Shown here piece by piece: positions 1,046-44,736 of a DNA stretch of 64,000 nt (the stretch's first letter is position 1; each line of letters starts with the position of its first letter). The stretch is from Candidatus Omnitrophota bacterium (GTDB lineage: Bacteria > Omnitrophota > Gorgyraeia > Zapsychrales > Fredricksoniimonadaceae), in the NCBI GenBank assembly GCA_028865345.1, contig JAGWKL010000009.1, forward strand, positions 7,382 to 71,381. Reading direction: 5' to 3'. The position numbers and the translations under genes are program-made. The notes under the pieces are model-generated. The model was not told the origin of the DNA. It searched no databases and saw only the letters and a list, made by a program, of their open reading frames with translations.

Positions 1046-2236
1046 ATGAAAAAATATGATTTCATCATTATAGGCTCGGGCATCATCGGCTTAGGTGTGG
1101 CGCTGGCCCTCAAGGACCGTAAAGAGCAAAGCCGCATTCTGGTCATGGACAAGGAAGCGGCAGAGGCCCAACACGCTTCCGGACGCAACAGCGGCGTGTT
1201 GCATGCGGGCTTCTACTATACGGCAGACAGCCTCAAGGCCAGGTTTACCGTTGAGGGTTCGCGCGCCATGAAAGCCTATGTCAAATCCAGGGGTCTGAAG
1301 ATCAATGAATGCGGGAAATTGGTGGTGGCCCAAAACGAGCATGAGTTGGGGCAACTGGATGAACTTTTGCAAAGGGGAAAACACAACGGTTCCAATGTCA
1401 GGCTGGTGGATGAGGCCGAAGCCTGCCGGATCGAGCCTAACGTCAGGACCTTTAAGCGGGCGTTGTATTCGCCGGACACGGCAAGCATCGATCCCAAGGA
1501 GGTCTGTGCCTCGCTTAAAAATGATCTGCAAAGATCAGGCGTCGAGTTTTCATTTGACACAAAGTATTTGGGCCGCTCGTCCAATATTCTTCAAACCACC
1601 AAGGGAGATTTCGAGGCAGGCAAGATCATCAATGCTGCCGGCCTTTACGCGGACCGCGTGGCCAGGGACTTCGGTTTTGGGTTTAAATATACAATGGTCC
1701 CTTTTAAAGGGCTTTATTTGAAATACACCAGCAATAAGACCGATGTTACCACCAACATTTATCCGGTGCCGAATTTAAAAAACCCGTTTTTAGGGGTGCA
1801 TTACACCAAGACCGTGACAGGGGACATTAAGATCGGGCCTACGGCCATCCCGGCTTTTTGGCGTGAAAATTACGGGGCCGCAAGCGGCTTTTCGGCCCAA
1901 GAGATGGCGGAGGTGTTGTTTTTCGAATCCAAGTTATATCTGACCAATGCCTTTAATTTCCGTTCCCTGGCCCATGAAGAAATGCGTAAATACAACAAGG
2001 AGTATTTTATTTCCCTGGCCGCTTCCATGGTCCGGCATATCGACCCGCAAGGGTTTACGGAATGGACCAAGCCCGGCATCCGGGCGCAGCTTTTGGACAA
2101 GCAAGAGCTCAAGCTCGTCCAGGATTTTGTGGTGGAGGGCGACCACAAAAGCATCCATGTCCTTAATGCCGTGTCTCCGGCCTTTACCTGCGCCTTTCCG
2201 TTTGCCAGGTATGTCGTGGACCAATACGTTATATGA
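1046..2236 (+). CDS. lhgO: FAD-dependent L-2-hydroxyglutarate oxidase-like oxidoreductase
   Basis: The N-terminus carries the dinucleotide-binding motif YDFIIIGSGIIGLGVA. HNSGVLHAGFYYT, NECGKLVVA and the C-terminal HVLNAVSPAFT collinearly match the LhgO/YgaF family. Confidence 0.8.
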   Translation: MKKYDFIIIGSGIIGLGVALALKDRKEQSRILVMDKEAAEAQHASGRNSGVLHAGFYYTADSLKARFTVEGSRAMKAYVKSRGLKINECGKLVVAQNEHELGQLDELLQRGKHNGSNVRLVDEAEACRIEPNVRTFKRALYSPDTASIDPKEVCASLKNDLQRSGVEFSFDTKYLGRSSNILQTTKGDFEAGKIINAAGLYADRVARDFGFGFKYTMVPFKGLYLKYTSNKTDVTTNIYPVPNLKNPFLGVHYTKTVTGDIKIGPTAIPAFWRENYGAASGFSAQEMAEVLFFESKLYLTNAFNFRSLAHEEMRKYNKEYFISLAASMVRHIDPQGFTEWTKPGIRAQLLDKQELKLVQDFVVEGDHKSIHVLNAVSPAFTCAFPFARYVVDQYVI

Positions 2237-4263
2237 AATCACCTCTTAAAATAGCTTCCCGTTCGAGTCCGCTTGCCCTCGTGCAGATCGACGAGATCAT
2301 CCGTGATTTAAAGGCCCTGGGCAGGTCGGTGGATTATGAAATTCTAAAAATCCAGACCGCCGGAGACATGGACAAGACCACGCCATTGACCCAAAGCTCC
2401 GACGATTTTTTTACCGACGCCATTGACCAGGCCCTGCTGGCAGGCCGGGCAGATATCGCCGTGCACAGCGCCAAAGACCTGCCGCAACATTTGAATGAAG
2501 GCTTAAAGATTTTCGCCCTGACCAAAACTCTCGATGACAAGGACGCCTGGGCAGGCCGGGTGCATTGGAAAGACCTGCCGCCCAATCCAACGATCGGCAC
2601 CAGCAGCCTCCTGCGTCAGCAACAGTTCTTGGGGCTGCGTCCCGATGCCAGGATCGTTCAAATCCGCGGGACCATTCAGGAGCGTCTGCAATTAGTCAAC
2701 AAAGGTGAGGTGGATGGCATTATTGTGGCGGCTTGCGCCCTCAAACGCCTGGGACTGCAGAAGGAAATCAAGGATGTTTTTCCCTGGGAGGGCATGCCTT
2801 TGCAAGGCCAGCTGGCCGTGGTGGGCCGCCGCGGCGATCAGGAATTGGAACAACTATTTGGCGTGATGGATGTCCGCCGCCAATACGGCAAGGTCACGCT
2901 GGTCGGAGCAGGCCCCGGCGACCCGGAATTGATGACCGTCAAGGGACTAAAGTGCCTTGCCCAAGCGGACTGCGTATTTTACGATTATCTGCTGGATGTC
3001 TCTTTATTAAAGCATGCCCCCCAAGCCGAGCATATTTATGCGGGCAAACGCAAAGGCGAGCATTCGCTTTCCCAGGCAGACCTTTCGAGGCTGCTTAAAG
3101 AAAAAGCTTTTGCCGGCAAAAGGGTGGTGCGTCTTAAAGGGGGAGACCCTTTGGTCTTTGGCCGCGGGGCTGACGAGATCCAATACCTGCGTTCCTACCA
3201 TATCGAGGTTGATGTCATTCCGGGCATCAGTTCGGCCACCGGCATTCCTTCTTCGCTGGGCATTCCTTTGACCGCTCGCGGGATTTCTTCGTCGGTTGCC
3301 TTCCTGACCGGCCATGAAGAAGACGAGAATAAAGACCATCCCAGGCAGGTCGCTGTCCCCGAGGCGGACACCCTTGTTTTTTTCATGGGGCTGACCAAAT
3401 TAAACGTGATCGTGCAATCATTAAAAGAATCCGGCCGGCCGCTGACGACACCGGTCATGATCGTTGCCAACGGCACCAGGCCCGGGCAACAGATCGTCCA
3501 GGGTACGCTTGGGACAATAGAAGATTCGGCCCATGTCCATGGTTTAAAGCCTCCCGCGCTTATTATCGTCGGGAAAACCATTGAATTTTATAAGTCCGAC
3601 GGGAAAAAGATTTTCCTGCATTGCGGAACGCACCCTCAAAGCTACAGCCGTTTGGGCACCATTGTGCATTGGCCCATGATCGATATCAAGCCTGCGGCTT
3701 TAAGCAAGGCCCAACAACAAGCTCTGCAGCAGGCTTTTGAATCCGCGGACATCATTGTGTGTACCAGCTGGTATGCGGGAGAGAATTTTGTCAATGCGAT
3801 GAGGGCCGTTGATCCTCAGGCCGATCTTTCAGGCAAGGCTTTTGCCGTCATCGGCCGGCGCACAGCAGGCGCCTTGCAGGAACACGGCATCAAGTCCGCC
3901 GTTGTCTCCCGGGAGGAGACCGCGCAAGGACTGTTTGAAACCATGAGGCGGCATTGGGATTTGAAAGGCAAGCGCATTTTGTTTCCGCGTTCCAATTTGC
4001 CCAACCCGTTTTTAAAAGAAGCGCTGGCGGCCCAGGGGGCGCTGGTCACGGAAATAACGATTTATGAAAACACCAAACCCGCCCGGCGTGATTTGCCGTC
4101 CATGGACATCGAAGGCGTTATTTTCACCAGCCCTTCAACAGTAAGGAATTTTCTGGCGGATTATGGTAAAATACCGGACTCCTGGCAGGTCCTGGCCAAG
4201 GGGCCGGTCACTTTAAAAACATTACAGGAAGAAGGGTACCATCATGCCTCATCGTTATCGTAG
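2233..4263 (+). CDS. Tri-domain fusion of HemC-like domains 1-2 (about 215 aa), uroporphyrinogen-III C-methyltransferase CobA/SUMT, and uroporphyrinogen-III synthase HemD
   Basis: The N-terminus has IASRSSPLALVQ, ADIAVHSAKDLP and IGTSSLLRQQ, matching HemC. The middle has VTLVGAGPGDPELMTVKG and KGGDPLVFGRG, matching SUMT. The C-terminal third resembles HemD. The ATG overlaps the lhgO stop as ATGA. Confidence 0.8.
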   Translation: MKSPLKIASRSSPLALVQIDEIIRDLKALGRSVDYEILKIQTAGDMDKTTPLTQSSDDFFTDAIDQALLAGRADIAVHSAKDLPQHLNEGLKIFALTKTLDDKDAWAGRVHWKDLPPNPTIGTSSLLRQQQFLGLRPDARIVQIRGTIQERLQLVNKGEVDGIIVAACALKRLGLQKEIKDVFPWEGMPLQGQLAVVGRRGDQELEQLFGVMDVRRQYGKVTLVGAGPGDPELMTVKGLKCLAQADCVFYDYLLDVSLLKHAPQAEHIYAGKRKGEHSLSQADLSRLLKEKAFAGKRVVRLKGGDPLVFGRGADEIQYLRSYHIEVDVIPGISSATGIPSSLGIPLTARGISSSVAFLTGHEEDENKDHPRQVAVPEADTLVFFMGLTKLNVIVQSLKESGRPLTTPVMIVANGTRPGQQIVQGTLGTIEDSAHVHGLKPPALIIVGKTIEFYKSDGKKIFLHCGTHPQSYSRLGTIVHWPMIDIKPAALSKAQQQALQQAFESADIIVCTSWYAGENFVNAMRAVDPQADLSGKAFAVIGRRTAGALQEHGIKSAVVSREETAQGLFETMRRHWDLKGKRILFPRSNLPNPFLKEALAAQGALVTEITIYENTKPARRDLPSMDIEGVIFTSPSTVRNFLADYGKIPDSWQVLAKGPVTLKTLQEEGYHHASSLS

Positions 4264-6780: not shown

Positions 6781-7122
6781 ATGTTCAATCCCATGAGAAA
6801 TAATGAGCAGCGCAGCCAACCGCGTGTCACCCTGGAGTTGCCCGTTACCGTCAGCATCGGATCGCAGCTGAGCGTCAAAGGCCAGCTTAAAGACCTTGCC
6901 GTCAACAGCGCCTTCATCAAGATCAAAAACAGCATTTATTTGAATGTTAACGATGAGATAGGGCTGGCCATTTCAGATTTGCCGGATGATCCTGATGCGC
7001 AGATCCAGGTGACCGCCCGGATCTCCCGTATCGTGCCGGGGGAGGGTTTTGCCGTTTATTTTACCGGAGTAGATGAAGAATCCTTAAAGTACATCAAGAA
7101 ATTCCTTCCCAAAGATCAATAA
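6781..7122 (+). CDS. PilZ domain protein (c-di-GMP binding candidate)
   Basis: An RxxxR motif (QRSQPRV) is followed by a D/NxSxxG-like segment and a beta-barrel-like C-terminus, in a single 113-aa domain. Confidence 0.6.
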   Translation: MFNPMRNNEQRSQPRVTLELPVTVSIGSQLSVKGQLKDLAVNSAFIKIKNSIYLNVNDEIGLAISDLPDDPDAQIQVTARISRIVPGEGFAVYFTGVDEESLKYIKKFLPKDQ

Positions 7123-9564: not shown

Positions 9565-10117
9565 CACGCGCATGGGGCGGGACAAGGCCCTGCTTTCCTT
9601 TCACGGCAAACCTCAGGTGGAATACGTTGGCGGCCTCCTGCAACAATTCTGCAAAAAAGTTTTCCTGTCGAAAAGGGCCGACCAGCCGCCGTACAAGGCC
9701 TTTGACTCCATCGATGATGCTCCTGAATTTTCCGGCCAGGGCCCTTTAAGCGGGATTTTATCTGCCATGAAGGAATACCGGGGCCATGACTGGCTGGTTA
9801 TGGCCTGTGATCTGCCCCTGGCGGGCGAGGAAGCGGTCCGAACGCTTCTCGCCGGCCGGGACCGCAGCAAAACAGCCACGGCTTTTATCAGCACCCATGA
9901 CCAATTGCCTGAACCTTTATGCGCCGTTTGGGAAGGGCATGCCTACGCCGCCATCTTAAAATCATTCAACGAAGGCATTCATTGCCCGCGCAAAATCCTG
10001 CTCAAAAGCGATGCCGCTTTGGTCAGCCAAACAAATCCGCATTGGCTGGACAACATCAACACCCTTAAAGAGTACGAAGCATTAATAAAGACCGCGCCGT
10101 TTGTTTTTTCCCGTTAA
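9512..10117 (+). CDS. mobA: Molybdenum cofactor guanylyltransferase
   Basis: LILAGGYSTRMGRDKALL is the MobA signature. The start was chosen at the internal ATG of MKATNHKLFGL. The track ORF begins at 9470. Confidence 0.85.
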   Translation: MKATNHKLFGLILAGGYSTRMGRDKALLSFHGKPQVEYVGGLLQQFCKKVFLSKRADQPPYKAFDSIDDAPEFSGQGPLSGILSAMKEYRGHDWLVMACDLPLAGEEAVRTLLAGRDRSKTATAFISTHDQLPEPLCAVWEGHAYAAILKSFNEGIHCPRKILLKSDAALVSQTNPHWLDNINTLKEYEALIKTAPFVFSR

Positions 10118-10152
10118 ATCGTATATACTTACATTTAGGATGCTTGATCGAT

Positions 10153-10254
10153 AATAGCAAACCCCGCGTAAGCGGGGGACGCAAAGCTATAGGGTCCTTT
10201 TGAGGGATAGGACAGCCTGGCCGCCGAAATAAGCTTCGAAGACCACGCCCTATT
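10153..10254 (+). promoter_or_regulatory. Candidate c-di-GMP-I (GEMM) riboswitch in the 5' leader of the tandem-REC gene
   Basis: The sequence is AGCAAACC-CCGC-GUAA-GCGG-GGGACGCAAAGC. This reproduces the GEMM-I core: GGCAAACC, a GNRA-capped hairpin, and GGGACGCAAAGCC. A possible P1 pairs AAUAG at 10153-10157 with CUAUU at 10250-10254. Confidence 0.45.
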
Positions 10255-10319
10255 CCTTAAATCAAGCAGTTTAAGGGATAGGTTTTTTATTTAATGGGCA
10301 TCCCTGGAGGGAGGGGCGC

Positions 10320-11123
10320 TTGATGAATAAAATACTGATCGTTGATGAAAAAGAAGCCCTTGCCCGCCAAATTGAAGAGCGTCTTTCTTCGACAGGTTTT
10401 GAAATTCTTTATGCGCCGGACGGCCTTTATGGTTTCCAGATGGCCAAGGACAAAACCCCGGATCTGATCATCACCGACGCCTCGATCCCCATGATCAGCG
10501 GTTATGAGTTATGCAAGGCGATCAAGCTTGATAAAGACACCCAATCCATCCCCATCGTGGTCATGACGGAAAAACACCGCATGGAAGAAGCCTTCATGTT
10601 TTTGGGCGTCAAAGATTTTCTGGAAAAGCCCGTTAACATGGATGAATTGGAGAAAGTCGTGAGGAACAAACTCCAATTTTCCAGGATCATGCAATTGCAA
10701 AGGTCCAAGGTCCTGGTGAGCGGCAACCCGGAAGTCCTGTCAGTTTGCGAAAAACTGCTTAAACACGACAAGTATTGGATGGGGTGTTTTTGTGATAATG
10801 GCGATTCCTGTCTGGAATTGGCCGCCAGGTATTCCCCGGATGTCATCCTGGTGGATATCCTCAAGCCGGGCATGACCTCCGATGAGGTGATACGCCAGCT
10901 TAAAACACTGCCGGGACTGAAAAATAGCGTTATTCTGGCCTATTACTCCCTCTCCGGGCAGAACAAGGACTATATTGCCGTCCAGGTCCAAATGATGGAA
11001 GTCCAATACATGAAAATCCTGGCGCTCGAAGCGGGCGCCAAGGAATATCTGGGGGCCTTAAATCCCGATACCTTCCTGAAACTCATCAATATCTACCGCA
11101 GGGAATTTAACTTTATCATTTAA
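10320..11123 (+). CDS. Tandem receiver-domain response regulator-like protein with no output domain
   Basis: The N-terminal REC has a phosphoacceptor context LIITDASIPMISG and K-box EKPV. The second half is REC-like and degenerate. Confidence 0.7.
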   Translation: MMNKILIVDEKEALARQIEERLSSTGFEILYAPDGLYGFQMAKDKTPDLIITDASIPMISGYELCKAIKLDKDTQSIPIVVMTEKHRMEEAFMFLGVKDFLEKPVNMDELEKVVRNKLQFSRIMQLQRSKVLVSGNPEVLSVCEKLLKHDKYWMGCFCDNGDSCLELAARYSPDVILVDILKPGMTSDEVIRQLKTLPGLKNSVILAYYSLSGQNKDYIAVQVQMMEVQYMKILALEAGAKEYLGALNPDTFLKLINIYRREFNFII

Positions 11124-11162
11124 AATTTGCGTGGTTTGGGATATTTTGTTAATATTCCTTTT

Positions 11163-12227
11163 ATGTTAGTTGTTGGTGTAAGCCACAAAACAGCGCCTAT
11201 TGGGGTCCGGGAAAAGTTTTTCTTAAATCCTTCCCAGCAGGACTTGCTCCTGAGTGAACTGAAAAATCATCCCCAGATCACGGAAGGTTTTGTCCTTTCG
11301 ACCTGCAACCGGACCGAGGTCTATCTGAAATGCCTAAATGAGGATGTCGGCCCTTCCTTTGTTGTGGCGCTTATCGCCAAGGTCAAAAAGATCAATTTTG
11401 ATTTTGATACAGGCCTTTATGTTTATTCCTATGAAGGGCCCGGGGCCCTGGACCATCTTTTAAGGGTGGCCTGCGGCCTGGAGTCCATGGTGTTGGGAGA
11501 AAAGCAGATCCTGGGGCAGGTCAAGCTGGCGGTGGAGCGTTCACATGGGGCAGGCACCCTGTCGCGTTATTTCAATATCCTGACCAATGTGGCCATCCGC
11601 GCTGGCAAAAAGGCCCAAAACGAAACCCAAATCAGCCACGGCGGATCTTCCGTTTCCTGGGCGGCCGTGAAAATGGCTGAAAAAGCCCTTGGCGATCTTA
11701 AGGGAAAATCCGTGCTGGTCATCGGCGCCGGAAAAATGGGAGGGATCGCCCTCGAACATCTTCAGGGGCTGGGTGTCAAAAAAATATTTTTAATGAACCG
11801 TACAGGCGAAAAAGCGGAGGCCCTGGCCGCCAAATACAACGGCATCCCGTCTTCTTTTTGGAACATCAGGGAGATTTTAAGCGAAGCGGACGTTTGCTTT
11901 TGCGCCGTGGGCGCCCCGCATTATATTCTCGACAAAGAAAAGATCGCCGATATCGCATCACAGCGCGGCGGGCGATTGCTCGTCTTGATAGACATTTCCA
12001 TGCCGCGCAACATCGACCCTGAAGTCGGGAAGCTTGCGGATGTCCATTTAAGCGCCATTGATGATCTGCAGGTTGTTTTGGACAACAACATGAAAAAACG
12101 CAGCCAGGCCGTGCACCAGGTTGAGGATATTATCCGCCAAAAAATCACCGAGTTCAAAGTCAAGATCGCCAAATTGGAACATACGCCCGGCACCGATTTT
12201 TATGAGCATCGGCGAATGCCCGGCTAG
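11163..12227 (+). CDS. hemA: Glutamyl-tRNA reductase
   Basis: VVGVSHKTAPIGVREK and STCNRTEVY contain the catalytic Cys. An NADP-binding GAGKMG is present. The start was chosen at the internal ATG. Confidence 0.85.
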   Translation: MLVVGVSHKTAPIGVREKFFLNPSQQDLLLSELKNHPQITEGFVLSTCNRTEVYLKCLNEDVGPSFVVALIAKVKKINFDFDTGLYVYSYEGPGALDHLLRVACGLESMVLGEKQILGQVKLAVERSHGAGTLSRYFNILTNVAIRAGKKAQNETQISHGGSSVSWAAVKMAEKALGDLKGKSVLVIGAGKMGGIALEHLQGLGVKKIFLMNRTGEKAEALAAKYNGIPSSFWNIREILSEADVCFCAVGAPHYILDKEKIADIASQRGGRLLVLIDISMPRNIDPEVGKLADVHLSAIDDLQVVLDNNMKKRSQAVHQVEDIIRQKITEFKVKIAKLEHTPGTDFYEHRRMPG

Positions 12228-12258: not shown

Positions 12259-12564
12259 ATGACAGCCGGGATCATTTTAACAGTCTGGGGCCTTCTTCTT
12301 ATATTAGGAGGCTTTCTGGGGTTTAAAAAGGGGAGCAAGGTCTCGCTCATTGCGGGCGCCTCATGCGGCATCCTCGTCTTTCTCGGTATTTGGATATTGA
12401 GTTTCGCGCCCAAACCGGGCTGGGTATTTTTGAGTTGTTTGAATTTCTTGTTGTCTTTGAACTTTCTTTCCAGGCTCCTTAAAACCAAAAAATTCATGCC
12501 TTCCGGCATGCTTTTAATTCTCACCCTGGCTGTGTTGATTTTCTGCCTGGCCGGACTTAAGTGA
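12259..12564 (+). CDS. Small four-TM membrane protein (TMEM14-like)
   Basis: It is 101 aa and almost entirely hydrophobic, with Gly-rich helices. Confidence 0.5.
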   Translation: MTAGIILTVWGLLLILGGFLGFKKGSKVSLIAGASCGILVFLGIWILSFAPKPGWVFLSCLNFLLSLNFLSRLLKTKKFMPSGMLLILTLAVLIFCLAGLK

Positions 12565-25076: not shown

Positions 25077-27374
25077 ATGAGTAAGAAAAAATGGCTGCAT
25101 CAGATCAAAGACTGGGTCGATGAACGCACCGGATTGATAAAGGCCGGCGCTGAATTCCTTCATGAAGAAATCCCCGGCGGCACCAGGTTTTCATACACCT
25201 TAGGCAGCGCCTGTTTATTTCTTTTGACCCTCCAGATCGTCACCGGCATCTGGCAGCTTTTTTATTATGTTCCGACCATTGATTATGCGTACTCCAGCTT
25301 AAATTACCTGCGCCTGCAGGTCCCATATGGGTGGCTCATCCACGGCATCCATTATTGGGGAGGGACTTTATTTACCATCGTCGTGGGATTGCACTGCCTG
25401 CGGGTTTTCATCTGGGGGTCCTATAAAAAGCCCCGGGAAATGGTGTGGCTGATGGGCATCGTGCTCATTATCCTGACGGCCCTGTTCATGTTCACCGGTC
25501 CGGTATTGCCCTGGGACAAAAACGGTTACTGGGCGGGGCAGGTGGGCATCGGCATCGCCGGCACCGTCCCTATCGTCGGTCCGCTGACGCAGATGCTGAT
25601 GCAGGGCGCCGACAAGATGGGGCAAATGGCCTTATTGCGCATGTATGTCATGCATGTGGCGCTTTTGCCCGGCGCCATTGCCCTTTTTGTGATTTTGCAT
25701 TTGGTGGCTTTCCGGAAATACGGTGAATCCGGGCCATGGGATAAAAAGAAGCGCGGAGGAGTCGGATATTTCTGGCCGGAACAGATATTCAAGGATGTGC
25801 TGGTTTCATTGTTGATATTCCTTTTGCTTGTTTACCTTTCCGCCTTTCATCCGGCGCCTTTTTCCGGTCTGGCCGACCCCATGGATACGCTTGTCACCCC
25901 TAAACCGGCCTGGAATTTTCTTTTCCTCTATCAATTGCTTAAATTGAAAATATTTTCAGGTCCTTTTGAACCATTGGGCACTGCCGGCATTCCCACGCTC
26001 TTTATCCTGCTTTTTGCTTCACTGCCTTTTGTGGACAAGAGTCCTGAACGCAATCCTTTTAAACGCGGCTTTGTCGTATTAAGCGGGTTTGCTTTTGTGG
26101 GCATGATCTTATATTTAACCTGGCTTGGTTATAGCTACACGTCTCCTGCCGTGGCAGCTCAAAAGGAACAGCCTAACCGCACCATGGTGACCCTTCACCA
26201 TAAAACGCAACCCCCCATGGACCTTCAAGAAACCATGCTCCTTGCCAATGCCAATAAAAAATTGACAGGAAAGAAGTTATTCCATACCTTGGGATGTACG
26301 GAATGCCATACCATAACCGGCAAGCCCAGCAATAAGCAAGGCCCGGACCTTATCATGGCAAAATCCAACAATCGTACCCGTGCCTGGTTATATGAACAGA
26401 TCGTTTCCCCTCAATCGCACAATCCCCGTACGATCATGCCGCCGTTTTCGGATTTAAGCCATAAAAATGTCGAGCTTTTGATTAATTTCCTGGACGGGCT
26501 GAAAGCCCCCAAGACGGCGGCGTTGCCGCCTCCGCCGCCGGCGTCGACAGCCGGAGGGACTGCGGCCGGCAAAGCAGCTGCCATTAAATACGGCGAACAA
26601 CTTTTCAATACAGTGGGCTGTACTCAATGCCATACGATCCAGGGCCGGCCAAGCAACAAGGTAGGGCCGGATTTGATCATAGCCGTCAAAAAGAGCAATC
26701 CTTCCAAAGATTGGCTCAAGACCCAGTTGACAGATCCCCAAGCGCATAATCCCATGAGCATCATGCCTTCATTTTCCAGCCGCTTGAATGACACGCAGAT
26801 GAATGCCGTGATTGTTTTCTTAAAAAGTTTGTCGACAAGAAAAGCAGTGCCATTGCCCGCCGGAGTGACGGAGACATCTTCCAGTAATACGAGTTCATCT
26901 TCGTCTTTCAGCAGCAATGCCGTTTATGCCACCAATATCATCGGTGACAAAGATCACGGAGCCATTCTCTTTCACCAGTCTTGTATCATGTGCCATGGGC
27001 CCCACGGAAACCCCAAAACCCCGGGATTTAACGCCCCCAAAGGCGTCCCGCCCCTTAATCCGATCGACCCCCATATTTTTAACGCCGATCCGCAGGCTTT
27101 TGTCGATCATATAAATACATTTATTCAGCACGGCGCCCCCAATATCGAGGGCGGCCCCAAAATGCCCAACTTCGGCGATTCTAATGCTTTGACCCAGGCC
27201 CAGATAGCGGACCTGGAAGCCTATGTCCTTTCCCTTAACGGAGTTGACCGCACCATGATCATGAACCCCGGGATTCAGCCCAAAGTATTTTTTTATACCT
27301 TACTTTGGATCACCTCTGTTATAATCATGTTAGCTGCAGTGTATTGGTTCGTGATCAGAACGCTTAAAATATAA
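25077..27374 (+). CDS. Cytochrome b fused to a C-terminal tri-heme c-type cytochrome
   Basis: The N-terminal 400 aa is a cyt b with His pairs in IHGIHYWG/GLHCLR and MHVALLP/ILHLVAF. The C-terminus carries three CxxCH motifs (CTECH, CTQCH, CIMCH) after a Pro-rich linker. Confidence 0.85.
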   Translation: MSKKKWLHQIKDWVDERTGLIKAGAEFLHEEIPGGTRFSYTLGSACLFLLTLQIVTGIWQLFYYVPTIDYAYSSLNYLRLQVPYGWLIHGIHYWGGTLFTIVVGLHCLRVFIWGSYKKPREMVWLMGIVLIILTALFMFTGPVLPWDKNGYWAGQVGIGIAGTVPIVGPLTQMLMQGADKMGQMALLRMYVMHVALLPGAIALFVILHLVAFRKYGESGPWDKKKRGGVGYFWPEQIFKDVLVSLLIFLLLVYLSAFHPAPFSGLADPMDTLVTPKPAWNFLFLYQLLKLKIFSGPFEPLGTAGIPTLFILLFASLPFVDKSPERNPFKRGFVVLSGFAFVGMILYLTWLGYSYTSPAVAAQKEQPNRTMVTLHHKTQPPMDLQETMLLANANKKLTGKKLFHTLGCTECHTITGKPSNKQGPDLIMAKSNNRTRAWLYEQIVSPQSHNPRTIMPPFSDLSHKNVELLINFLDGLKAPKTAALPPPPPASTAGGTAAGKAAAIKYGEQLFNTVGCTQCHTIQGRPSNKVGPDLIIAVKKSNPSKDWLKTQLTDPQAHNPMSIMPSFSSRLNDTQMNAVIVFLKSLSTRKAVPLPAGVTETSSSNTSSSSSFSSNAVYATNIIGDKDHGAILFHQSCIMCHGPHGNPKTPGFNAPKGVPPLNPIDPHIFNADPQAFVDHINTFIQHGAPNIEGGPKMPNFGDSNALTQAQIADLEAYVLSLNGVDRTMIMNPGIQPKVFFYTLLWITSVIIMLAAVYWFVIRTLKI

Positions 27375-37301: not shown

Positions 37302-38048
37302 ATGCGTATTTTACTGACCAACGACGATGGGATCTATGCCGAAGGCATTTACGCCGCTTATAAGGCCTTAAGTAAAATTGCCGAGGTCACGGTCGTGGCC
37401 CCGGATTACGAGCAGAGTTCGGTCGGGCACGGCATCACTCTTTTTTACCCTCTCTTTGCCAAGAGAATCTCCCCGGAAAACCATTTCGATGGCTATGCCG
37501 TCAGCGGCAAACCCGCTGACTGCGTCAAATTCGCCGTCAGCGTGCTGTTCAAAGGCAAAAAGCCCGACCTGGTCGTCTCCGGCATCAATTTGGGAGGCAA
37601 TGACGGTTGCAGCGTATTTTATTCGGGAACGGTCGCCGCCGCCCGCGAAGGGGCGCTGATGGGCCTTAAGGCATTTTCCATTTCCCTGGATTGTTTTGAC
37701 GATCCGGATTTTGCCCAGGCCGCTAAATTCACATCCAGGTTTGCTTTGTGGGTCCACAAAAATCATCTGCCTTCCGGCACCTTCCTCAACGTGAATGTCC
37801 CCCTTGGGAAACCCAAAGGCGTGCTGTTCACCCGCCAGGGAACGGAACCTATCCATGAAATCTTCGAAAAACGCAAAAGCCCGCATGATAAACATTATTA
37901 CTGGATGGGCGCCAAAATGCCCGTCCATAAAAATGATAATAAGATAGACACCTATGCGTTGAAAAATAAATACATCACCATAACCCCGGTCCGTTCGGAC
38001 TTGACCGATGAAGGTTTTTTGAGCAACGTGCTCATGGAAAAAATATGA
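37302..38048 (+). CDS. surE: 5'/3'-nucleotidase SurE
   Basis: MRILLTNDDGI is the SurE signature. Confidence 0.9.
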   Translation: MRILLTNDDGIYAEGIYAAYKALSKIAEVTVVAPDYEQSSVGHGITLFYPLFAKRISPENHFDGYAVSGKPADCVKFAVSVLFKGKKPDLVVSGINLGGNDGCSVFYSGTVAAAREGALMGLKAFSISLDCFDDPDFAQAAKFTSRFALWVHKNHLPSGTFLNVNVPLGKPKGVLFTRQGTEPIHEIFEKRKSPHDKHYYWMGAKMPVHKNDNKIDTYALKNKYITITPVRSDLTDEGFLSNVLMEKI

Positions 38049-39094
38049 TCCCTGACGAAAGAATCTTTGCAGCCCGGATCCTGGCCGTAGACGACAACAT
38101 CCTTAACCTCCAGATCCTCAAAAAAATACTTGATCAGGCGGGCTTTATCCACATTACGACCACCACCGATCCTACAAAGGCCGTTGACCTTTACAAAGAG
38201 ATCCGGCCTGACCTGGTTCTCCTTGATTTGAACATGCCCAAGATGGACGGTTTCGCTGTCATGGCCCAATTGTCCATTCTCAATCCGGGGGACTATCTTC
38301 CCATATTGGTGTTGACGGCCGAAGAAGAGTCATTGCGTTTTAAGGCCCTGCAAAGCGGCGCCAAAGATTTTCTGCACAAGCCTTACGAACGGCTCGATGT
38401 GCTCCTCAGGAGCCGTAACATCATAGAGGTAAGGCTTTTGTACAAACAGATCAAGGATGATAATGCCACCCTGGACCAAAAGGTCAACGAGCAGATCAAG
38501 GAGATCCGGGACACCCGTCTGGAAGTCATCCGGCGGCTGGCCGTGGCCGCAGAATTGAGGGACACGGGCACCGGGCAGCACATCTACCGCATGAGCCATT
38601 ATTCCAAAGCCTTGGCCCTGGCCTTCGGTTTTACGAAAGAGCAGGGGGAGCTGCTGTTTACGGCCTCACCTTTGCATGATATCGGCAAGATTGCCATTCC
38701 CGATTCCATTTTATTAAAACCCTCCAGGCTCGAACCCCATGAATTCGAGATCATCAAGACCCATACCATCCTGGGGGCCCAAATGCTGGCAGGCAGCAAT
38801 TCTGTTTTCCTGAAGATGGCCGAAACCATCGCCTTAAACCATCACGAAAAATGGGACGGTAGCGGATATCCTCAAGGTATACGGGGAGAAGAGATCCCCA
38901 TCACCGGCCGCATCTGCGCTGTTGCCGATGTTTTTGACGCTCTCAGCTCCGACAGGCCGTATAAAGGGGCTTGGACGATCGAAAAAACCATGGCCGAATT
39001 AAGAAAACAAAAAGGGACTCATTTTGACCCTAAATTGATCGACGCCTTTGAAAGCATCCAGAAGGAGATTAAAGCAGTTTATGATCAGAATTAA
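38045..39094 (+). CDS. Response regulator with HD-GYP phosphodiesterase domain (RpfG-like)
   Basis: A REC domain (LLDLNMPKMDG) is followed by HDIGK...HHEKWDGSGYPQG. Confidence 0.85.
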   Translation: MIPDERIFAARILAVDDNILNLQILKKILDQAGFIHITTTTDPTKAVDLYKEIRPDLVLLDLNMPKMDGFAVMAQLSILNPGDYLPILVLTAEEESLRFKALQSGAKDFLHKPYERLDVLLRSRNIIEVRLLYKQIKDDNATLDQKVNEQIKEIRDTRLEVIRRLAVAAELRDTGTGQHIYRMSHYSKALALAFGFTKEQGELLFTASPLHDIGKIAIPDSILLKPSRLEPHEFEIIKTHTILGAQMLAGSNSVFLKMAETIALNHHEKWDGSGYPQGIRGEEIPITGRICAVADVFDALSSDRPYKGAWTIEKTMAELRKQKGTHFDPKLIDAFESIQKEIKAVYDQN

Positions 39095-44382: not shown

Positions 44383-44736
44383 ATGACATCTTACGAAGAT
44401 CGCCGGGACAGTGTACGGGCCAGACGCATCATCACCGTCCGCCACCGTCTCGTTAAACACAACAACCGGAAAATTGATTCCATCTGGCAGCTGGCCACGA
44501 CAGAAAATATGTCCTTGAGCGGCCTGCTTTTTGTCAGCGCCTTGCCGTACCATCCCGATGACGTTATTGAGCTTAATATCATCATGTCCGGTGTCATCGA
44601 TATTTTTAACGGCTTCGGCAAGGTCGTCCGGGTGATCCGCAATAAAGGCGGTTACCATAAGGTGGCCGTAAGGTATGTCGATCTCAAAGCCAGGCGCCGG
44701 CCGGCTAAGTCTATTCTTACCTCAACCAAACAATGA
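44383..44736 (+). CDS. PilZ domain protein
   Basis: An RxxxR motif (RRDSVRARR) and an NxSxSG motif (NMSLSGL) are present. The stop overlaps the next ORF's ATG. Confidence 0.6.
   Translation: MTSYEDRRDSVRARRIITVRHRLVKHNNRKIDSIWQLATTENMSLSGLLFVSALPYHPDDVIELNIIMSGVIDIFNGFGKVVRVIRNKGGYHKVAVRYVDLKARRRPAKSILTSTKQ

Follow-up and report, generated by a model that had tools for sequence, protein, structure and literature searches.

A GEMM-I riboswitch with an A20 pocket ahead of a tandem receiver gene and hemA in Candidatus Omnitrophota, a candidate 3',3'-cGAMP sensor

In class I cyclic di-GMP (c-di-GMP) riboswitches, which have the GEMM-I fold, G20 and C92 each take one of the two ligand guanines as a pairing partner, and A47 is intercalated between these (PMC5888326; PMC6140456). 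The pair that G20 forms with the first guanine in the canonical c-di-GMP sensors is of the Hoogsteen type. GEMM-Ib riboswitches carry an A in place of G20, which pairs with the adenine of 3',3'-cGAMP, a cyclic GMP-AMP (PMC6140456; PMC6456294); in the Gs1761 RNA, A14 corresponds to Vc2 G20 and makes this pair (PMC6140456). The single substitution A20G in Gmet_0970 turns cGAMP selectivity into c-di-GMP selectivity (PMC6456294), and the Hammond laboratory explicitly expected cGAMP riboswitches in other bacteria (PMC8835794). Here we describe a GEMM-I riboswitch in the leader of a gene for a tandem receiver-domain (REC-REC) protein of a Candidatus Omnitrophota bacterium. All coordinates are positions in a 64,000-nt stretch of contig JAGWKL010000009.1 (the window), unless they are given for another locus; the switch, its promoter and the two genes behind it lie on the + strand. 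A literature search found no work discussing this kind of riboswitch in Omnitrophota; the nearest co-mention of a riboswitch and Omnitrophota was in work on the receptor protein ComFB, with a single mention of Omnitrophota.

A cmscan search of the whole window gave only one Rfam match above the gathering threshold, at 10147-10229 (+), to RF03167 (c-di-GMP-I-GGC), with a score of 60.3 bits against a threshold of 59 and an E-value of 9.7e-12. The same match had an E-value of 4e-14 when the leader alone was scanned. Clan competition in cmscan leaves only the best clan member in the report, and RF03167 is the best-scoring member of the GEMM-I clan (CL00126). A preliminary description of this stretch, made from its letters, had proposed a GEMM-I riboswitch in front of the tandem-receiver gene on the strength of its conserved core motifs and a GUAA-capped hairpin, and had called for an Rfam covariance search. 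The search bears the proposal out, with membership of the fold established at a curated covariance-model threshold by way of RF03167, and the motifs are all present at 10156-10187: AGCAAACC at 10156-10163, the hairpin CCCCGC-GUAA-GCGGGG at 10162-10177 and GGGACGCAAAGC at 10176-10187. The leader element is, with near certainty, a genuine GEMM-I-fold riboswitch. The aptamer extends from 10142 to 10234 and the entire switch to ~10292; the span originally assigned to it, 10153-10254, loses the 5' half of helix P1 and ends inside the terminator.

We aligned 14 aptamers, 12 from orthologous loci and two further Omnitrophota aptamers from locus L003, and tested a structure in which P1 consists of a 5-bp outer and a 2-bp inner helix, P2 of GC/GC outer pairs followed by a stem of 6 bp, and P3 of 11 bp with an AG bulge. 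Over P1, P2 and P3, 93.7% of the alignment cells were paired and nine pairs had changes on both sides; none of 500 shuffles was equally good, and controls with slid partners reached at most 46% paired. The element therefore has the covariation-backed three-helix junction of a GEMM-I RNA, and the minimum free energy (MFE) structure of the isolated window aptamer contains the identical P1/P2/P3 junction. The conserved core, GCAAAC ... GGACGCAAAGC with A47 and C92, is that of the GEMM-I fold and is invariant in the 14 sequences.

The 5' strand of P1 occupies 10142-10150 and the 3' strand, CGAAAUAAGC, occupies 10225-10234, as given by both the covariation test and the MFE structure. The outer helix pairs 10142-10146 with 10230-10234, with both-side changes in three of its five pairs, and the inner C-G and G-C pairs join 10149-10150 to 10225-10226. 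The junction strand J1/2, AUAAUA (10151-10156), lies directly 5' of the invariant G-C/C-G pairs 10157-58/10181-82. These are the GC...GC outer pairs of P2 (10157-10182), which also contains an AAA bulge, the 6-bp stem 10162-67/10172-77 and the GUAA loop 10168-10171; every cell of P2 is paired, four of the six inner pairs show compensatory changes, and the loop is of the GNRA type (GUAA, GGAA, GCAA or GAAA) in 14/14 sequences. P3 (10185-10222) is built from a 5' strand (10185-88 and 10191-97), a loop (10198-10209) and a 3' strand (10210-13 and 10216-22) with the AG bulge at 10214-15, and has 92% of its cells paired and compensatory changes in two pairs. The invariant AGG/CCU of P3 and the AG bulge are candidates for the tetraloop receptor. 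The pair that closes P3, 10185/10222, beside the equivalent of C92, is an A.C mismatch in 12 of the 14 sequences and A-U in the other two; in the Gs1761 sequence it is also A-U.

The preliminary description had drawn P1 differently, as AAUAG (10153-10157) paired with CUAUU (10250-10254). The two segments are indeed complementary, and they are not P1: the J1/2 strand, which contacts the ligand, and the first base of P2 make up AAUAG, CUAUU belongs to the 5' arm of the terminator, and L170, L173 and L177 change AAUAG with no compensation in CUAUU. The covarying P1 is 10142-10150 with 10225-10234.

DNA of orthologous loci was gathered by protein-pattern scans of genome and metagenome contigs (about six true loci), and the rest by exact look-ups. 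In 13 distinct loci from metagenomes and metagenome-assembled genomes (MAGs) the aptamer is flanked by a conserved promoter block on one side and by the REC-REC gene on the other (the window, L001, L081, L082, L161, L162, L163, L165, L167, L170, L173, L174 and L177). It is absent from L172, L175/176 and L084, where the promoter block directly abuts the ribosome-binding site. A clade-specific covariance model (R1), applied to the window and to 61 other loci, added no aptamer copies to the known ones. The probable promoter spans 10101-10129, with a -35 element TTGTTT (10101-10106), a 17-nt spacer and a -10 element TATACT (10124-10129), and the block cTTGTTTTT...GTATATACTT is kept before every orthologue, including the riboswitch-less L172, L175 and L084. 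From these elements transcription would start near 10136, ~5 nt ahead of P1. A promoter-like site predicted by a scan at 10128-10155 was rejected, since it lies inside the aptamer and the conserved upstream TTGTTT/TATACT block fits better.

Two of the orthologous loci have features of their own. The L165 aptamer carries a 66-nt, two-hairpin insertion (~2308-2373 of that locus) within the otherwise invariant core GGACG^CAAAGC; the insertion is identical in a second independent assembly (L166), and the aptamer, missed by Rfam, scores 67.7 bits with the clade model. In L177 a MazE/PemK toxin-antitoxin pair (1678-2259) lies directly upstream of the riboswitch promoter.

Alignment to Rfam places A10156 at the equivalent of Vc2 G20 and Gs1761 A14, the reader of the first ligand base, and C10224 at the equivalent of Vc2 C92 and Gs1761 C75, the Watson-Crick partner of the ligand guanine. 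A10183 is the position-47 equivalent; with A10184 it forms the invariant AA that corresponds to Vc2 A47/A48, of which A47 is the one intercalated between the bases of the ligand. C10224 belongs to a GC (10223-10224) that is invariant in 14/14 sequences. The pocket is thus A/A/C, as against G/A/C in canonical c-di-GMP riboswitches and G/G/C in the Rfam label. The G that canonical c-di-GMP sensors have at position 20 is missing, and the combination by which GEMM-Ib is defined, A20 with A47 and C92 (PMC6140456; PMC6456294), is present. Ten of the 11 ligand-contacting nucleotides listed for the Gs1761-cGAMP structure 4YAZ (PMC7288161) are identical in the window, the remaining one belonging to a base pair that is flipped; the 4YAZ sequence used for this alignment has the published letter at each of the 11 listed positions. 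Overall identity of the window aptamer is 73% to the 4YAZ construct and 59% to Vc2. On a scaffold that is nearly the same, the two aptamers of L003, a locus of another Omnitrophota MAG, have J1/2 strands AAUG and AAAG, with a G at position 20. They lie at 1958-2053 (+) and 3576-3669 (-) of their locus, each with its own terminator behind it, and one of them lies ahead of a REC-REC gene of 255 aa, with 25% identity to that of the window.

Because A/A/C is the pocket of the Geobacter GEMM-Ib riboswitches, we take 3',3'-cGAMP to be the most likely ligand of what would be a cGAMP-preferring pocket, a judgment in which confidence and doubt are evenly balanced; some cross-recognition of c-di-GMP is possibly to be expected as well. 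The assignment of c-di-GMP in the preliminary description is doubtful, position 20 being A, the change that defines GEMM-Ib, in 12 of the 13 orthologues. Several points weigh against cGAMP. Selectivity for cGAMP requires an A at position 20 but is not guaranteed by it: c-di-GMP is also bound, via a protonated adenine, by Vc2 G20A and by some natural A20 riboswitches (PMC6140456). Orthologue L170 has C, not A, at this position. We found no cGAMP synthase, whether a Hypr GGDEF with Ser at GacA position 348 or a DncV-like enzyme, and no GGDEF motif anywhere in the 64-kb window; the GGDEF genes in related material are of the canonical Asp, GHxxGD/GGEEF types only (the REC-GGDEF matches P0042, P0043, P0052 and P0059 and a gene of L010). 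The window encodes components of the c-di-GMP type, two PilZ proteins and one REC-HD-GYP protein.

The element could be an ordinary class I riboswitch in which A20 still binds c-di-GMP in the cell, with c-di-GMP as the physiological signal. Its membership of the Rfam c-di-GMP-I clan, the PilZ and HD-GYP proteins and the lack of a cGAMP synthase in the window and among the related GGDEF genes would all fit, and Vc2 G20A, with its protonated adenine, binds c-di-GMP at 53 nM (PMC6140456). We nevertheless consider this unlikely. The A is kept in 12/13 orthologues despite protein identities of 50-71%, and G20 aptamers exist in the same phylum on an almost identical scaffold; that A20 is retained across divergent orthologues while G20 relatives exist suggests selection for A20 rather than drift. 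In Geobacter, moreover, the one change A20G is enough to flip selectivity (PMC6456294), and one preprint reports HD-GYP enzymes in cGAMP signalling as well (bioRxiv 10.1101/600031), so that the genomic context is not specific to c-di-GMP. A sensor of the Cbe 1-2 kind (Clostridium beijerinckii), which would answer at physiological concentrations to 3',3'-cGAMP and to c-di-GMP alike, has documented precedent in natural bispecific A20 riboswitches (PMC6140456). The surroundings of the pocket differ from those of the selective Geobacter RNAs in a way that would suit it, since the pocket-side outer pair of P2 is flipped (G-C as in Vc2, against C-G in Gs1761) and the A.C mismatch closes P3 beside C92. 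The ten ligand contacts that the window has in common with the selective Gs1761 RNA (PMC7288161) argue the other way, and we regard bispecificity as improbable.

The Rfam label itself would make the RNA a c-di-GMP-I-GGC variant with the ligand of that variant, and RF03167 is, after all, the best-scoring clan member. Its consensus, however, has G at the equivalents of both position 20 and position 47, where the window has A; the score stems from the common scaffold, not from the variant pocket; and 7 of the 12 orthologous loci detected by Rfam fall below the RF03167 threshold, at 54.8-58.9 bits. That the element belongs to this variant is extremely improbable. In the naming scheme for variant riboswitches, the GGC of the family name denotes positions 20/47/92. 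The GGC variant is not described in Weinberg 2017 NAR.

Behind the aptamer, the intrinsic terminator that the preliminary description had advised looking for is present: a terminator scan located it at 10249-10292, as a 13-14 bp hairpin (10249-10282) followed by UUUUUUAUUU (U6). It does not overlap P1, and its 8-bp core is 100% paired in all 11 orthologues that have a terminator. The 3' arm, UUUAAGGGAUAGG (10270-10282), is the same as the P3 segment 10199-10211 at 12 of 13 positions; since this P3 segment, UUUGAGGGAUAGG, mimics the 3' arm, two alternative partners are open to the terminator 5' arm. The switching strand (10243-10261) consists of linker CCA (10243-45), GC (10247-48) and the terminator 5' arm CCUAUUCCUUAAA (10249-10261), and pairs upstream or downstream. 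Its upstream partner, the 5' strand of the antiterminator, is made from the loop and 3' strand of P3 (10199-10220) and comprises the mimic segment, GC (10215-16) and UGG (10218-20). The linker contributes the pairs G10215-C10248, C10216-G10247, U10218-A10245, G10219-C10244 and G10220-C10243.

The antiterminator has 91.5% of its cells paired over 11 orthologues, compared with at most 48% for slid partners. The linker CCA.GC is conserved across orthologues, L082 has a compensatory change (AACAGG/CCUGUU), and in L177 the pairing, read from the sequence, is kept in a shifted register. Constrained folding put the antiterminator and the state with aptamer and terminator 0-6 kcal/mol apart in 11 of 12 orthologues (-51.5 and -51.2, respectively, in the window), and for transcripts truncated just past the 5' arm the MFE structure was the antiterminator in 11/12. 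An alternative pairing, of linker GACC with GGUC in the 5' strand of P3, was dropped because it lacks compensation in GGAUCC variants and would give a knotted topology; CCA.GC of the linker pairs instead with the 3' strand of P3.

These structures suggest how the switch could work. In the absence of ligand, the emerging linker and terminator 5' arm would invade P3 and pair with 10199-10220; the resulting antiterminator would withhold the 5' arm from its 3' partner and allow read-through into the REC-REC gene and hemA. Bound ligand would lock P1, P3 and the docking of P2 with P3 and leave the switching strand free, so that the terminator hairpin and U6 form and transcription stops. The antiterminator excludes the liganded aptamer because it consumes the P3 3' strand, and ligand would therefore favour termination. 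We think it likely that the element is an OFF switch that works by competition between terminator and antiterminator, with the direction of switching inferred from this folding model. The c-di-GMP riboswitch Cd1 offers an OFF precedent in which coexisting aptamer and terminator are set against an antiterminator (PMC9262584).

Two points count against this assignment of direction. The covariation of the antiterminator is thin, with two compensatory cells, the strands being almost invariant, and all characterised Geobacter GEMM-Ib riboswitches, the known cGAMP riboswitches of that genus, are ON switches (PMC6456294; PMC9262584), as this one would be if ligand favoured read-through. An ON switch is nonetheless quite unlikely here. 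Terminator and aptamer do not overlap, so both can coexist, and the sole conserved competitor of the terminator uses the 3' strand of P3 and is incompatible with the folded, liganded aptamer. L001 also points to repression by ligand. This locus, from Omnitrophota isolate REEB252, is the closest named relative; its aptamer (2915-3003) runs directly into the start codon, and it has neither a terminator platform nor the motif GGAAUAGG in P3. Its P1 is CAUUG/CGAUG, with the AUG start codon within the 3' strand, and on this ground L001 supports OFF logic. The L001 aptamer appears to be re-wired for translational control with that logic preserved.

No P3 mimic of the terminator arm was found in the two L003 G20 aptamers. 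The C of L170 lies at position 2351 of its locus (AAACGCAAAC) and is confirmed by a second assembly, L171; the predicted antiterminator of L170 is the weakest, 11.5 kcal/mol above the terminator state, and this locus may represent a decaying switch or one of different specificity.

The regulated unit is probably REC-REC with hemA, its transcription shut off by ligand. A Shine-Dalgarno sequence read directly from the DNA, GGAGGGAGG (10305-10313), precedes the ATG at 10323-10325, and all orthologues begin with MNKIL at the equivalent ATG. The REC-REC gene (10323-11123) encodes a stand-alone response regulator of 266 aa with two Pfam Response_reg stretches, in agreement with the tandem receivers proposed at the outset. 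Receiver 1 is complete in translation (acidic pocket, D52, T82 and K102) and receiver 2 is degenerate. Among solved structures, the REC-REC' stalk of the diguanylate cyclase PleD provides the best relatives, with two matching stretches, and the protein looks like a PleD-type receiver pair devoid of the GGDEF (cyclase) domain; it could act as a phosphate sink or as a partner in a cyclase pathway. NCBI proteins of Candidatus Omnitrophota MAGs match it at 100% identity, and ~40 metagenomic orthologues have 50-71% identity. A 9-codon upstream open reading frame, MGIPGGRGA (10294-10323), ends in a stop codon, TGA, that shares bases with the REC-REC ATG (TGATG); the orthologues read do not conserve this frame, which is probably due to chance.

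The gene for glutamyl-tRNA reductase, hemA (11127-12227; Pfam GlutR_N and Shikimate_DH), starts only 3 nt past the REC-REC stop codon and is for this reason probably co-transcribed with REC-REC. No convincing terminator was found in the interval between them, and the order of REC-REC followed by hemA is conserved at every orthologous locus that extends that far, often continuing with a TMEM14-family gene and then the atp operon.

The riboswitch operon sits inside a long haem and respiration cluster (1046-29270). In order, the cluster holds a hemC/TP_methylase/hemD triple fusion (2233-4263), hemB and hemL, then a PilZ gene, an amine-oxidase/protoporphyrinogen-oxidase (PPO)-like gene, moeA and mobA, then the riboswitch operon and a TMEM14-family gene (12259-12564), followed by the atp operon, the cox genes, a fusion of cytochromes b and c, and ctaA/ctaB-like genes. 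The cytochrome fusion (25077-27374) is 765 aa long and joins cytochrome b to a three-CxxCH cytochrome c. The labels of the atp, cox and ctaA/B genes come from reading-frame translations and the Pfam annotation of orthologous loci only; those of hemC-methylase-hemD, hemB, hemL, PilZ, the oxidase, moeA, mobA, hemA, TMEM14 and cytochrome b-c are based on Pfam. The two stand-alone PilZ genes and the HD-GYP response regulator mentioned in the preliminary description were located at 6781-7122, 44383-44736 and 38045-39094 (REC-HD-GYP), respectively. The first of these PilZ genes, of 113 aa, sits between hemL and the PPO-like gene and may provide a second, protein-level cyclic-dinucleotide input to the haem pathway.

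The element is a new member of the known GEMM-I fold, and what is noteworthy about it is its A20 pocket, seen in a new phylum, an OFF logic that relies on a P3 mimic, and the link to hemA. Standard annotation would give a c-di-GMP riboswitch or the 'GGC' variant, and the pocket disagrees with both. The element suggests that, in a phylum known from metagenomes only, haem synthesis and respiration are under the control of a second messenger. Selectivity for cGAMP would make it a GEMM-Ib of the OFF type and a natural cGAMP riboswitch from beyond the Geobacter group, and would provide a handle for finding the Omnitrophota cGAMP synthase; if it binds c-di-GMP after all, it would be a routine riboswitch with a tidy P3-mimic antiterminator. 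Tentatively, and with more doubt than confidence, we suggest that Omnitrophota run two cyclic-dinucleotide channels on near-identical GEMM-I scaffolds, in which G20 aptamers read c-di-GMP and A20 aptamers read 3',3'-cGAMP, the A20 clade being a cGAMP-repressed OFF switch. If that is true, cGAMP would be connected with hemA, at the entry to haem synthesis, and with a PleD-like REC-REC protein, within a respiration gene cluster. The signalling of cGAMP through riboswitches, up to now characterised mainly in Geobacter, would then extend to an uncultured phylum, which would be a second lineage linking cGAMP to respiration, and an unrecognised cGAMP synthase in Omnitrophota would be implied. For the design of biosensors, G20 and A20 aptamers that have one scaffold in common would form a compact, natural pair with switched specificity.

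Among described systems, the Geobacter GEMM-Ib riboswitches (Gs1761/pgcA, Gmet_0970 and pilM) have the same three-helix GEMM-I fold as the window, with a GNRA-capped P2 and A20/A47/C92. The J1/2 strand AAUA of Gs1761 (A11 A12 U13 A14) is found in the window too, and the 3' pocket strand, GCCGAAA, is also identical. Both settings have a respiratory theme, with cytochromes in the Geobacter regulon (PMC6456294) and, in the window, hemA in a haem, cytochrome and ATP-synthase cluster. The two differ in phylum (Desulfuromonadales as opposed to Omnitrophota) and in output: the Geobacter switches are ON, whereas the window element is a predicted OFF switch whose terminator stands apart from P1 and whose antiterminator draws on P3. 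The window aptamer also differs in its flipped P2 outer pair (G-C) and in the A.C mismatch that closes P3, and it regulates a REC-REC gene, with no cognate Hypr GGDEF found in the window.

The expression platform is closest in logic to that of Cd1, in the flgB leader of Clostridioides difficile, which likewise is OFF, with coexisting aptamer and terminator competing with an antiterminator (PMC9262584). Cd1 is described as c-di-GMP-sensing, whereas the window has A at the position-20 equivalent, and the Cd1 antiterminator involves the P1 strand that stabilises the aptamer (PMC9262584), whereas in the window the P3 loop and 3' strand would be invaded. With Vc2 of Vibrio cholerae, the archetype of RF01051, the window has in common the core GCAAACC...GGGACGCAAAGC, A47, C92 and the GNRA-capped P2; Vc2 has G20 in place of the A20 of the window and discriminates against cGAMP, with a Kd of 10 μM compared with a picomolar value for c-di-GMP (PMC6140456). 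RF03167 has the same P3 scaffold with the AG bulge and the same 3' GCcgaa tail, and its consensus G at the position-20 and position-47 equivalents sets it apart from the window, which has A at both. Cbe 1-2 of Clostridium beijerinckii is a natural A20 GEMM-I riboswitch outside Geobacter and is documented as bispecific (PMC6140456).

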